Shown one piece after another: positions 5,455-18,901 of a DNA stretch of 64,000 nt (within the stretch, counting starts at the first letter, position 1; every line of letters begins with the position of its first letter). Location: contig OX597820.1 in NCBI GenBank assembly GCA_951406725.2, forward strand, positions 79,980,001 through 80,044,000, given 5' to 3'. Position numbers and translations under genes: made by a program. The notes below the pieces were generated by a model. It searched no databases. It was not told where the DNA came from and saw nothing but the letters and a program-made list of their open reading frames with translations. The stretch is from Octopus vulgaris (Eukaryota).

Positions 5455-5868
5455 TTAGTAAATGTCTATAAAAGAGGTAGGGTAGGGGTGACATTGATTC
5501 ATGACGTTGTTACCAGTTAAAGGAGCATACACTGTGAAAATTAAGATGATACCTTGATTGAGATCTAGGAAAACATTAGGGACTCAGTGGGACCCCTATG
5601 ACCCCCATTGTGTTCCATGCCACTTTAAACATTGTAGGCTATTCTTCTCTTAACTTTTCTTGCTGCAATGGTGACAACATGAAATTTTCTCATCTTCTTG
5701 CTCTGTTAAAATATTTAAGAAAAATTAAATTAATATATCTTGCCTGTTGAAAATCCATATTTCTTGCAGCTGAAGATAGCGCTGCATTGATGTAATGCTT
5801 GCATTGTTCAGTTAAATGGAGGCACTTGAAACGGCCGTACTGCAATACTACTTGACATCCTGTTACTT
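5455..5868 (+). mobile_element. Non-coding HHR-bearing element, family C (Penelope pLTR / retrozyme-like)
   Basis: 5590-5865 is homologous to 18650-18925; 5461-5488 matches 17081-17110; ends in an HHR. Confidence 0.7.
5764..5845 (+). ncRNA. Type-I hammerhead ribozyme, family C, core intact
   Basis: TTGCAG-CTGAAGA-[long imperfect stem II]-GAAAC-GGCC-GTA-CTGCAA: perfect 6-bp stem I, palindromic ACGGCCGT, GUA triplet. Confidence 0.8.
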
Positions 5869-5920
5869 CATTATTTACATTATTTACATTTGACGGATAT
5901 TTGTCCTCATCTTTGTTGCT

Positions 5921-5966
5921 AATACAATGTTTCGGCTAATATACCCTCCAGCCTTCATCAGGTGTC
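5921..5966 (-). ncRNA. Minimal hammerhead ribozyme, family A (left arm)
   Basis: Reverse complement gacac-CTGATGA-a-GGCTG..TAGCC-GAAA-ca-TT-gtatt; core intact, one stem I mismatch, palindrome decayed. Confidence 0.7.
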
Positions 5967-6073
5967 CTGGGGAAATTTCGAACCTGGGTTCTCATTCCTA
6001 AGTCATTTTGCGATATTATTATTATTATTATTATTATTATTATTATTATTATTATTATTATTATTATTATTAT

Positions 6074-6150
6074 TCAGGTCACTGCCTAGAATCGAAATCG
6101 GAATTTTGGGGTTAGTAACCCGGGCTCTTAACAACTACACCATATGCCTG
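6074..6150 (-). ncRNA. tRNA-like (Pol III A/B box) module inside the family A element; not a functional tRNA
   Basis: Reverse complement ggtgtagttgttaagagcccgggttactaaccccaaaattccgatttcgattctaggcagtgacctg; second copy at 44471-44541 has the clearer B box gagttcgattcc. Confidence 0.65.
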
Positions 6151-6363
6151 AATAATAATAATAATCATAATAATAATAACAACAACAACAACATCAATAA
6201 TAATAATAATAATAATAATCATAATAATAATAATAATAATAATAATAATAATAATAATAAGAAGAAGAAGAAGAAGAAGAAGAAGAAGAATGATAATAAT
6301 AATGATAATGATAACATCGAAAAATACCTTAGGAATGAGAACCCAGGTTCGAAATTTCCTCAA

Positions 6364-14180: not shown

Positions 14181-15491
14181 CTGTAATTTATAGGTAGAAC
14201 GAATTGTAAAAATTAACAACAAATCATCACTTTACATAAAATTCAAGGTTGAAAAGACATAATTTCATGTTGGCGATTTTACACAATTTCCATAATTTAA
14301 TTAGTAGATAAAACTAATTTCTGTTTATATTTTATTCGAAAGAAATGATGAATCACCAAATGACCAAAAGGAAATGTTCAGCTCTAAGTACTTAATAACT
14401 GTATGACATTATTTCAGTGATTTATTTTAATGTTAAATTACGTTTTTTGTTGTTGTTTCCATTACAAATTTTATAAATTACTTTATATACAATTTTTGTA
14501 ATAAATCATGTTAACTTATCAATGATTTCATTTCTCCTTGGAGAACGAAATTCAAATGAACTTTAAAAGTGAAATCATATAGACACATATATGCACACAT
14601 ATACACATTTAAAAATACACGCATTCATAGAAACTTCGTTTTTCTTCACAATGGAACTCAGAAGATATAAAACTATGAATAATGGTGTGTAAATACTATG
14701 TTAAAAAAAAAAGCCACTGGATAGAAAAAGTTGAAGGCTGACTATCGGACTCAAAACTTGCTTTTCTACTAACATGAAAGACGTTCTACCATTGAATCAA
14801 ATCATCCATTTTAGAAGCTGAAGCAACCAAATGTGAGTGGAAGAGCGGCTGATACCGAATGAATTTCATAGTTTAGTTATGTCCCTTTACCGTAACTGCT
14901 TCTTCATTTTGAATTTTTAAAATGTTTTCTTGGGTCCAAGGATTCATAAGATCAGCTACTCGGTTGGTATCAAGATATAAACTGATATGAATATCATATT
15001 AATTAAAATGCTTTAGTGATGACGTCCAACAATATGCAATAAAGAGGATTATTTTGTTACACATGCACACACACATACATACATATGTGTGTGTGTGTAT
15101 TTTCTTATATACGTGTGTGTTTATGTGCGTGCTTATCTGAGTACGATTGAGTTATACACGTATGTGTAACTTTGTAAACTACTTTTTACGAGAATAAAAA
15201 AAATATAAAGCACTCACAGTCTTTCAGGACTTTACAATCTATCACAACTGCATTTTATTTTAGCAGCCTCGTTGATAGTACAAAGAAGGCATAACATGTG
15301 GGACGTTAAAGAAAATTTCCATTTCGTAGTAATTCTTCATATTTTCAAAGTTTCCAGTTGCACTTTATTAGCACTCAACAATGTTCTATTTAACACACTA
15401 TTCATTAGAGTTTTATATATATATATATATATATATATATATATGTAATATAATACATAAGTATGTAATATAATTTTTCTGAAACGTCAGA

Positions 15492-15570
15492 TTTTTTAAT
15501 ATGCTAGACCGCTGGTTTTAAATTGATATTAACTAAATTAATATTCAATTTTTCACCCTTTTTATTTAAA
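15492..15570. repeat. Short dispersed repeat, reverse complement of 55493-55575
   Basis: atgctagaccgctggttttaaattgatattaactaaattaatat vs atattaatttaattaacatcgatttcacaccagtggtctagcat. Confidence 0.65.
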
Positions 15571-17851
15571 TCTATCTATCTATCTATCTATCTATCTATC
15601 TATCTATCTATCTATCTATCTATCTATCTATCTATCTATCTATCTATCTATCTATCTATATATATATATATATATATATATATATAGATAGAGAGAGAGA
15701 GAGAGATGATAGGTAGATATAAACATACATACACACACACACACAGACACATATATATGTATGTATATATACATATACATATATGTGTGTGCGTGTGTAT
15801 TTATATATATACATATATTTACACACACACAGACATATGTATATATATGCATGAATGTAAAATGCATGTATATATATACATATGTGTGTGTGTGTGTGTG
15901 TGTATGTGTATATATATATTTATATATCTGTATATATGTATGTATATGTAAATATAATATGTATATATAAGTTTTTTAAAAGCAAATTGGCATGATGGAA
16001 GACAACGTCTGTTTAAGCACTTTCTCTATACGTTCGATAACAGTTGTCCTTAGTTCCGACTTAGTTCTGGATTTAAAATCTTTGTACAAAATTCTTTTGT
16101 TTTCTTAATTGATAAATCGTTCCTATATTTTGAAAAAGAATATATTTTGAATTTCCAGTTAGCACAAAGGTGTAGAGTTTCACAACCAGGAACATTCCTA
16201 GCCGAAGGACCTTCCATCTGTTCTCTGTACTCTGGCTCAGTCCAGTAATTCGCTTCGTATTTGGCCAATATCGTTCTCATTTCACTATGGGCATGTAATA
16301 CAAAAAATGGGATATTTTCTGTAAATTTGATAATTGGTGTAAGATGACTGGCTATCATTTTGATAGATGTAAAACGTTGTGGTTTCTGGAAGTGTAGGTT
16401 ACTACAAGTGGAATATTTTTGTTTGTATCTTTCGCCACATGGTGAGAAATTCTCCGTAGATCAGGAATTAGGATTTGTTTTGCTTTGATTATGGCATTAT
16501 TTTTTGGTATTTTTGTCTCTGGAGAAATAACATTTTTTTTTAGTTACCCCCAGAGACAAACATGTCTGGAAAACTTAATATGTAAATTATCCAGAATAAT
16601 CTGAACGTGGAACAAATGATACTGTTTGAAATATTTTATAGGAAGAGCATAAGAGAAAACGAATTGCGGGGTGTGGGGAGAGTATCTACTCGTTCACGCA
16701 CACACACACACACACACACACACACACATACAGACACACACACACACACATGTATATATAAATACACACTCACACACACGTGCATATCTATCTATCTATC
16801 TATCTATCTATCTATCTATCTATCTATCTATCTATCTATATGTATGCGTGTGTGTGTGTGTGTGTGTGTGTGTGTGTGTGTGTATAAACACTATGCCTTC
16901 AAAAGGACGTAAAACATACAATTCTAACAGGTACAACAGTTGAATACGACAGATAAACACACAAATATATTTATCTCTTTATCATCTATTAAATCTGAGA
17001 CTAGAAGACTGTCTGTTTTGCATAAAGAACAAGAGTGAGAAAAGAAATAAAACTTACGAAGTGTCAATTTGATAGAAGAAAGTGTCTATAAAAAAGAGGC
17101 AGGGTAGGGGTATATATATATATATATATATATATATATATATATATATATATATATATATATATATATATATATATATATATTTATATATTTATATATA
17201 TATATATTTATATATATATATATATATATTTATATATTTATATATATATATATATATATATATATATAAAAGGAAATGAAGAAAATGCTGACAAATAATT
17301 GAAGTAATTTAAGTAATTTAATTAGGTGAAAGTTCTTTTTACCGGTTGCGCATTTGTTATGCTTATCAAAATATAAAAGAGAGATTAGAGTTCCTTTCTT
17401 ATAGAATTTTTCCTCTTATCTGACTTTATGTTGGGTTTGCTGTCTCTTATATGTGAAAAAAGAGGCTCCAGAGTTGTTTTGGATTTGCTTGGTTTCGCGC
17501 CTAAAATTTTGATTGGTCATTATGAAGGGGTCACGTGAATGTTTGAATGGAAGTTGGTGTTGGGGTAAGAAAAAAGGCTCCAGAGAAGTTAAAATTTGGC
17601 TAGTGTCCCGCCTAAAATTTCTTATTGGCCATAATAAAGAGGTCACGTGAATGTTTAGAATTTTCGAAAATAGTGTTGTTGAAAATTCTTATTGTTCAGG
17701 CTGGTCAGTAGACGTCATGTGGATATTTTAAATAGCTTTTTAGCGCGTAGTTAGGGAGTGTATTTTCCGCTTGACTGGATAAGTAAGTTCGTTTAGAACA
17801 GGGAGAGCTGTATGTATGTATGTGTGTGCGCGCGCGCACACACATACATAT

Positions 17852-17888
17852 ATTTTGATAAGCATAACAAATGCGCAACCGGTAAAAA
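17852..17888 (+). ncRNA. Degenerate hammerhead motif, family G (identical inverted copy at 17336-17372)
   Basis: tt-TTGATAA-GCAT aacaa ATGC-GCAA-ccgg-TA-aa: correct topology with palindromic ACCGGT but three core substitutions. Confidence 0.5.
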
Positions 17889-18815
17889 GAACTTTCACCT
17901 AATTAAATTACTTAAATTACTTCAATTATTTGTCAGCATTTTCTTCATTTCCTTTTTTATATATCACCACTCGTGTTCGACATCTCCTTTTTTTAAATAT
18001 ATATATATATATATATATATATATATATATATATATATATATATATTTATATATATATTCTTATATGAGACATTATTATTATCGGTTGAATTAGGTACTT
18101 AAATTGAAGCACCAAGTCAGACAGGTATTATCCGCATACTGGAAATAAGGTTAATAAAATCAAAATTAGCAACAGGATATCAAGTAGTGATGCAGTACGA
18201 CCTAATAATTAATTAATTAAGAAACAAGAATGCTATTAAACTGATTCTACATAATCTTCCTTTTTAATCTTTATACTTGATACATCCACATCTTTTAGCT
18301 ATTTTGGTTATGTTATCATTTGGAATTCATAAATTTTATCTTTATACAACATAACAATATTGTTTATAAACGTTCCACCATCATGCCCCTGATAAAATTT
18401 CCTTGTGTTAGCATCTTAATTTTCTTTGTGTCTTGCCCCTTTAACTGGTTATGAATATCATAATTTAAAATCTACCCCTACCCTGCTTCTTTTTTTATAG
18501 ACAGTTTCTTCTATCAAATTGACTCTTCTTAATGTTTTATTTCTTTTCTCACTCTTGTTCTTTATTCAAAATAGACACAGTCTTCTAGTCTCAGATTTAA
18601 TAGATGATAAAGAGATAAATAAATTAGAAATGAATTACAACCCTTACAATCCTATGACCCCACTATGCACAATACGATTCTAAGAAATTGTAGTCTATTC
18701 TTAACCACTTTCCTGCAATAGCGACAACATAAGTTTCTTCCATTGTCGTAATCTGTTGAAATGTTTAAGAAAAATTATATTAATGTGTCCTACTTGTGAA
18801 AAATTCTATATTTTG

Positions 18816-18901
18816 TGTAGCTGAAGATAGCACTGCATTTAAATTGATGTAATGATTGCATTGCTCAATTAAATGGAGTCGCTTGAAACGATCGTACTGC
18901 A
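18816..18901 (+). ncRNA. Type-I hammerhead ribozyme, family C, core intact
   Basis: TGTAG-CTGAAGA-[long stem II: cattt..attga/tcaattaaatg, gtaatg/cattgc]-GAAAC-GATC-GTA-CTGCA. Confidence 0.8.

Follow-up and report, generated by a model that had tools for sequence, protein, structure and literature searches.

Two hammerhead-like motifs lie 13 kilobases (kb) apart in the genome of Octopus vulgaris, each split by an unusually long stem II insert, and raise the question of whether they are working ribozymes or the remains of a mobile element. We approached it in a stretch of 64,000 nucleotides (nt) of contig OX597820.1 (assembly GCA_951406725.2, positions 79,980,001–80,044,000, forward strand), here called the window and numbered from its first letter; it is AT-rich and rich in microsatellites and repeats. 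We believe it probable that the motifs, copy 1 and copy 2 below, belong to a high-copy repeat of which two dispersed and decayed members lie here, that this repeat is likely the 3' end of a Penelope-like element (PLE), and that it carries a hammerhead predicted to cut only as a dimer. A motif scan found the type I hammerhead layout at two loci:

5764..5845, + strand: type I hammerhead motif of copy 1, predicted cut after A5839
18815..18902, + strand: type I hammerhead motif of copy 2, predicted cut after A18896

Both run in the order 6-base-pair (bp) stem I, CTGAAGA, insert, GAAAC, 4-nt loop, GTA and second strand of stem I. Their cores read CUGANGA ... GAAA ... NUH in type I order with GUA as the site, and the insert between the core halves is 51 nt long in copy 1 and 57 nt in copy 2. 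A first-pass annotation had placed copy 1 at the same positions and had described CTGAAGA, GAAAC, GTA and stem I pairing as kept in both copies, and so we found them; for copy 2 it had the right location, its limits of 18816–18901 being those of a version with a 5-bp stem I. Both hammerhead motifs are real. The pattern matches twice in the window against 0.03 matches expected, none of 100 shuffles reached two, and in a control that ran a similar pattern over contigs from metagenomes and viruses, none of the 131 matches listed had a stem I of at least 5 bp (0 bp in 80, 1 bp in 37, 2 bp in 6, 3 bp in 7 and 4 bp in 1). Neither copy folded into a stable distal stem I, and a contact between loop I and loop II by way of an internal loop in stem II is a guess.

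Rfam release 15 gave no match at gathering score anywhere in the window, and around either copy no hammerhead family appeared even at E 10, the matches being due to chance. The core letters of the Rfam hammerhead families are the same as those of both copies, and the models probably miss the motif because of its long insert; at 57 bases, the stem greatly exceeds the usual length, which conceals the motif from standard searches. A family-specific motif had no match in metagenome and viral contigs. The at least 120 plus 11 loci that a general long-insert pattern picked up there (metagenome and viral contigs) were all judged to be chance, with no BLAST match to the copies. We also discarded a permuted order for this family: the order here is the ordinary type I one, and the window holds no motif with site, GAAA and core in that sequence. 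Separately, the word TGCA occurs within 18816–18901 both in stem I and, twice, in stem II; a possible inactive fold would therefore join the 5' strand of stem I to the beginning of the insert.

Contigs of four public sequencing runs were aligned to positions 18740–18938 of copy 2 (199 nt) at a likeness of at least 80%, and the variants given here are those in 40 of the 82 rows of the resulting table, which is depth-weighted and unphased. Three DNA runs with three organism labels yielded 2,964, 3,251 and 3,417 contigs on copy 2, and family percentages refer to these runs. The fourth, run X18, which is RNA only by guess, gave 309 contig records with A18891G at 17.8% and an empty table of ends, and is uninformative on transcription, editing and cutting. 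Summed depth, which is no copy number, peaked inside stem II at 24–30 times that of the upstream flank. Set against the 15–35 of the listed long pieces, the peak depth of 658,680 in run X1 roughly suggests a copy number of the order of ten thousand. The repeat is dispersed and very high-copy, and both window copies are decayed. Core position 7 varies freely in the family (A>G in 55–68%), and stem I position 18818 is C in 92–94%, giving a Watson–Crick pair.

The feature that sets the family apart is the insert:

18828..18884, + strand: long stem II of copy 2, 57 nt with 23 predicted pairs
5777..5827, + strand: stem II insert of copy 1, 51 nt, not stably folded

An unusual stem II hairpin of about 50–57 nt had been described for both copies, and it stands for copy 2, where the insert folds at -21.0 kcal/mol (z -4.76) and less well on the reverse strand (-13.4 kcal/mol), with a U-U at the base and a variable internal loop at the fourth position. 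It does not stand for copy 1, whose insert folds no better than shuffles (-9.5 kcal/mol, z +0.81) and stays unclosed even when stem I, the core and helix III are enforced; stem II is damaged here, the 5' arm lacking 6 nt relative to copy 2 and the third pair being a C-A mismatch. The long stem II is nevertheless family-wide and includes one compensatory swap. The first pair, 18829/18883, switches from A-U to U-A, with A>T at 18829 in 53, 55 and 50% and T>A at 18883 in 73, 65 and 70% in the three DNA runs, 18849/18864 is G-U in 95–98%, and 20 of the 23 predicted pairs are without a listed variant. Loose contig ends (55–76 contigs per DNA run) point to a further lineage in which the same upper stem continues, at 18841, into a different stem base.

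Between GAAAC and GTA, each copy carries a short self-complementary element:

5831..5838, + strand: palindromic helix III of copy 1, ACGGCCGT, self-duplex -14.1 kcal/mol
18888..18895, + strand: palindromic helix III of copy 2, ACGATCGT, the majority form of the family

Helix III is a perfect 8-nt palindrome in both. The earlier claim that the GGCC/GATC difference in loop III keeps self-complementarity is thus correct, and that of dimer competence is supported, as a rough energy sum prefers the palindrome-paired dimer in both copies (copy 2, -53.6 kcal/mol against -42.6 for two monomers; copy 1, -42.3 against -27.2 for monomers, with misfolded monomers at -41.4) and A18891G is the sole change listed for loop III, or for helix III as a whole. 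Its share in the three DNA runs is 7.3, 9.3 and 9.1%. The mirror change T18892C, which GGCC requires, is absent from the listed rows in every run; as the lowest-looking 15 of these rows each reach at least 4.9% in some run, T18892C probably lies below 4.9%, the ranking rule of the rows being inferred.

GAUC is the dominant loop among contigs aligned to copy 2. Self-duplex energies of the 8-nt element are -10.0 kcal/mol for GAUC, -14.1 for GGCC, -5.8 for GGUC and -3.2 for GACC: GGUC retains the 8-bp duplex through two tandem G-U pairs, whereas GACC breaks it. Because the GGUC intermediate pairs by wobble, the double change between GAUC and GGCC needs no compensatory jump. The excess of A18891G fits source copies with a wobble-tolerant loop, from which GGCC lies one step away, but may be a single founder event. 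The new parts of the family are this wobble path and the family-wide 57-nt stem II.

The first-pass annotation went further and proposed selection in two subfamilies, which our data do not establish: GGCC looks rare, the stem II of copy 1 is damaged, and chance alone makes 6 of the 54 double mutants of a 4-nt loop palindromic, so that two sequences by themselves say little. Two selected subfamilies are possible. GGCC seems rare among contigs aligned to copy 2, but double mismatches near alignment ends are under-counted there, and the copy 1 lineage may be too diverged for such alignment. The window also holds a second hammerhead family, at 29021–29072 (-) and 48794–48855 (-), with a GUU site, stem II inserts of 25 and 31 nt and copies that are 78% alike over 537 nt. 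Its palindrome, ACGTACGT, supports selection of the palindrome across families, there being three different palindromic loops among the four hammerhead copies of the two families.

Copies 1 and 2 are homologous past the motif, with 73.5% identity over 306 columns. Their flanks, which had been called clearly diverged, are indeed less alike than the motif (identical positions: upstream 115/150, motif 71/82, tail 25/31), although the difference is not significant (Fisher p 0.095) and the flanks are homologous. The surrounding parts are as follows:

5595..5763, + strand: body of the copy 1 element upstream of the motif, homologous to 18651–18814
18651..18814, + strand: corresponding upstream body in copy 2, covered by contigs of all four runs from about 18750 on
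18903..18938, + strand: short tail after the hammerhead of copy 2, ending in (TA)n
5846..5889, + strand: tail of copy 1, running into a repeat of another family in opposite orientation (5869–6000)
5419..5551, + strand: further upstream segment of copy 1, collinear with the hammerhead; inverted in copy 2 (18409–18547)
18409..18625, - strand: inverted upstream segment at copy 2
18066..18207, - strand: inverted tail copy at the far end of copy 2, BLAST match 18129–18202, outer limits by eye
16964..17111, + strand: third fragment of the upstream segment, 88.6% to 18450–18625, ending in (TA)n

The inverted tail at copy 2 extends from 5–7 nt ahead of the predicted cut to a (TA)n end. Copy 2 is bordered by (TA)n at its outer ends; copy 1 is without a (TA)n end. 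Copy 2 combines an inverted truncated 5' copy, a tail and a (TA)n target, and all three are known for PLEs (PMC8557442; here and below, published work is cited for the portions of each source that we covered). The Penelope label, which rests on layout and ribozyme type, is likely. Two further observations concern the inverted part of copy 2. Its tail (18196–18207, -) opens with GGTCGTA, either a wobble loop variant or a chance junction, and 18208–18370 (-), a stretch missing from copy 1, starts with GT and ends in a pyrimidine-rich AG, and so looks intron-like.

If the repeat is the end of a PLE, a tandem source transcript would carry two hammerhead motifs, and the 8-nt palindromes of the two would pair, extending helix III from 2 to 8 bp. 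As in other hammerheads, helix III would likely stack with the long stem II, whose variable internal loop, after the first three pairs, would take the usual place of loop II. The predicted cut after GUA would free a unit for copying by a trans-acting reverse transcriptase. Only source copies would be under selection; dispersed single copies such as copies 1 and 2 would be inactive and accumulate damage, as is visible in copy 1.

Several observations weigh against this reading. We found no remnant of a reverse transcriptase or GIY-YIG domain: 12 frames gave no Pfam family, and one frame gave no HMMER match among 1.84 billion proteins, the copies searched being short and old. (CxxC-like stretches noticed by eye were dismissed as chance.) The window contains no tandem unit of the long-stem family, only the two copies 13 kb apart. 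Core and stem I damage is listed in the family, with C18821T reaching 6.3% and G18820A 6.9%. The fourth stem II pair, 18832/18879, is not kept, 18832 being U in 50–55% and C in 20–27% while 18879 mostly stays U; this makes it a variable internal loop and argues against a rigid stem. The variant table, besides being depth-weighted and unphased, is biased to conserved stretches, as only alike pieces align. Lastly, Poseidon of Anolis is the one Penelope element tested biochemically; its hammerhead required protein, insertion in vitro did not depend on it, and RNA-seq showed no ends at its site (PMC11167929, as far as covered). Penelope-associated hammerheads are known to cut slowly in vitro (PMC4209133).

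A stronger version is less likely than not: that an active but uncatalogued hammerhead is present in an octopus-type genome in some ten thousand copies, that its 57-nt stem II serves as a conserved functional domain with a protein-binding or regulatory role, and that its dimer palindrome is evolving by G-U wobble steps through GAUC, GGUC and GGCC. If this is true, hammerheads with long inserts go unnoticed by Rfam and the customary descriptors, and PLE families scored as lacking hammerheads may hold them.

We also weighed explanations in which dimer cutting is not what has been selected. The long stem II might itself be the selected part, as a binding site for the reverse transcriptase of the element or for a chaperone, or as a switch, the core cutting little or only with protein. 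Depth peaks there and not in the core, though this mid-motif peak is partly an artefact, as contigs need a seed. The scarcity of listed variants among its pairs, the lineage that joins another base to the same upper stem, and the shorter inserts of the related family in the window, which make the extension lineage-specific yet kept, all favour the idea, as does the Anolis Poseidon hammerhead, which cuts with its protein only (PMC11167929). Core and palindrome are conserved too, however, and there is no known protein partner; we regard this explanation as unlikely. Rather improbable, in our view, is that the repeat is a non-LTR (long terminal repeat) retrozyme, in which short tandem units are cut by hammerheads into circles and both copies are stray monomers. 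A two-pair helix III with a tetraloop and the U-U at the base of helix II occur in the axolotl hammerhead HHR_Amex2 (PMC7229834), no open reading frame (ORF) was found, and retrozymes have been proposed to derive from Penelope pseudo-LTRs (pLTRs) and to leave dispersed monomers (10.64898/2026.07.22.740005). Set against this, the window has no tandem units of 150–450 bp, the two copies being 13 kb apart, a single contig in one of the four runs goes back within the aligned stretch (199 nt only), and the inverted pieces and tails suit Penelope-type insertion. The retrozyme explanation shades into the PLE one.

It is very improbable that the palindromes are neutral fossils of a GATC founder, with the GGCC of copy 1 reached by chance by way of GGTC or through adenosine-to-inosine (A-to-I) editing before retro-insertion. 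Favouring it are the chance rate of 6 palindromic double changes in 54, the frequency of A>G at 18891, from which one more transition suffices, and the damage elsewhere in the stem II of copy 1. On the other hand, in a perfect DNA palindrome A18891G on one strand is T18892C on the other, and neutral decay would give them equal shares, whereas A>G alone is listed; the four copies of two families have three palindromic loops; and no A>G is listed for the upper stem of the long hairpin, although it would be the better substrate for editing. This explanation bears on the loop of copy 1 and not on the origin of the family, for which we continue to favour a PLE with a hammerhead predicted to cut as a dimer.

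Hammerheads of PLEs with a small palindromic helix III were reportedly described by Lunse et al. in 2017. The palindrome-and-dimer design is indeed already known for Penelope-associated and repeat hammerheads (PMC4209133; PMC3088659, legend of Fig. S8; review PMC6765202). Those described by Cervera and de la Pena in 2014 (PMC4209133) share with the window copies the type I order, a short stem I, an extra nucleotide at the start of stem II, the palindromic helix III and predicted dimer cleavage, and are likewise dispersed single copies in large heterogeneous families. They differ in having a helix II of 6–8 bp, against about 23 pairs in 57 nt here; no linked ORF was found here. Published palindromic or dimer hammerheads have a helix II of 2–8 bp, and 'long' means 6–8 bp in PMC13725137. 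HHR_Amex2 also cleaves better as a dimer and is present in tens of thousands of copies, but it sits in tandem 350-bp units and has a short helix II, neither of which is seen here (PMC7229834).

Among PLE clades, Hydra comes close in some respects (Craig et al., 2021; PMC8557442, File S2). Many of its hammerheads have a U after the heptamer and a U before GAAA, as here; the U-U at the base of stem II is also found in other natural hammerheads (PMC7229834, PMC3088659). The clade has (TA)n targets like copy 2 and is present in Octopus. Its stem II is mostly 3–7 bp, however, and its helix III 3–4 bp with a non-palindromic loop of 1–3 nt, the sequence of Hydra-1_oBim differs from the window copies, and a Hydra-type protein was not found; we therefore rejected membership. 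A precedent for the long insert is PLE-X1_sMoe of Selaginella (same file), with about 53 nt between the core halves, although this hammerhead is marked as deviating, has a 9-bp stem with a long loop and a non-palindromic helix III, and belongs to a plant element that targets ribosomal DNA. Membership of the Naiad clade was rejected as well: short motifs from the copies had no match in the part of the PMC8557442 supplement covered, where line breaks can hide some, and the 3' ends covered there differ. In the literature covered on octopus hammerheads and long stem II, which takes in a minority of subscription papers, the family is not described. The covered text of the cephalopod repeat papers PMC13282606 and PMC8967140 does not contain 'ribozyme' or 'hammerhead'. 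Supplementary figures accompanying PMC4209133 and PMC3088659, or the supplement to PMC13282606, may already show examples of a long stem II, or the family itself.

For the question of why PLEs carry hammerheads, the long-stem family, a very abundant animal hammerhead family missed by standard searches, offers a natural test set of thousands of copies with wobble and Watson–Crick variants of the palindrome, and the stem II lengths of its relatives, spanning 25–57 nt, are material from which to learn whether the long stem matters and whether dimer pairing is selected.

The rest of the window holds other repeats. The second-family copy at 48600–49416 contains a 160-bp fold-back (49072–49231/49252–49411), a partial tandem and (TA)n ends; the partial tandem, of the pseudo-LTR type, was seen there and not in the long-stem family. 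Members of a third family, at 5869–6000 (-), 6330–6464 (+) and 44335–44469 (-), are about 90% alike and resemble a minimal hammerhead without loop III, GAAAC being followed by GUU, with the core changed in all three copies. An element at 17260–17990, between (TA)n tracts, has near-identical inverted ends (17260–17375/17849–17956) and an internal 93-nt direct repeat (17458–17548/17570–17661). Open frames at 22110–22796 (-), 59118–59714 (+), 7821–8201 (-), 21193–21522 (+), 1067–1384 (-), 44642–45046 (-) and 45114–45440 (-) resemble fragments of proteins from non-LTR retrotransposons and of a mariner-like transposase.

A final set of observations concerns published Naiad elements, which are reported to be without canonical hammerheads, eight of their consensi being flagged 'half core' (PMC8557442, File S5). 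We read these consensi by eye, naming them by file order, in the portion of the file covered. No hammerhead was seen in the 3' stretch covered of Parc and 3_Dst. Ovul, Esco, 4_Dst and the unflagged Obim have site, GAAA and core in that order, with stems I and III and an indistinct stem II, so that this order appears in cephalopod and ostracod consensi. Three 'half core' consensi, two from nematodes and one from a spider, look like complete non-circularly permuted hammerheads of type CSG, with covarying stems and an extra helix; type CSG is known from two sequences (PMC10085705). No title or abstract opening covered links the Naiad 'half cores' to permuted hammerheads, and this interpretation of them, if correct, is possibly more novel than the long-stem family.

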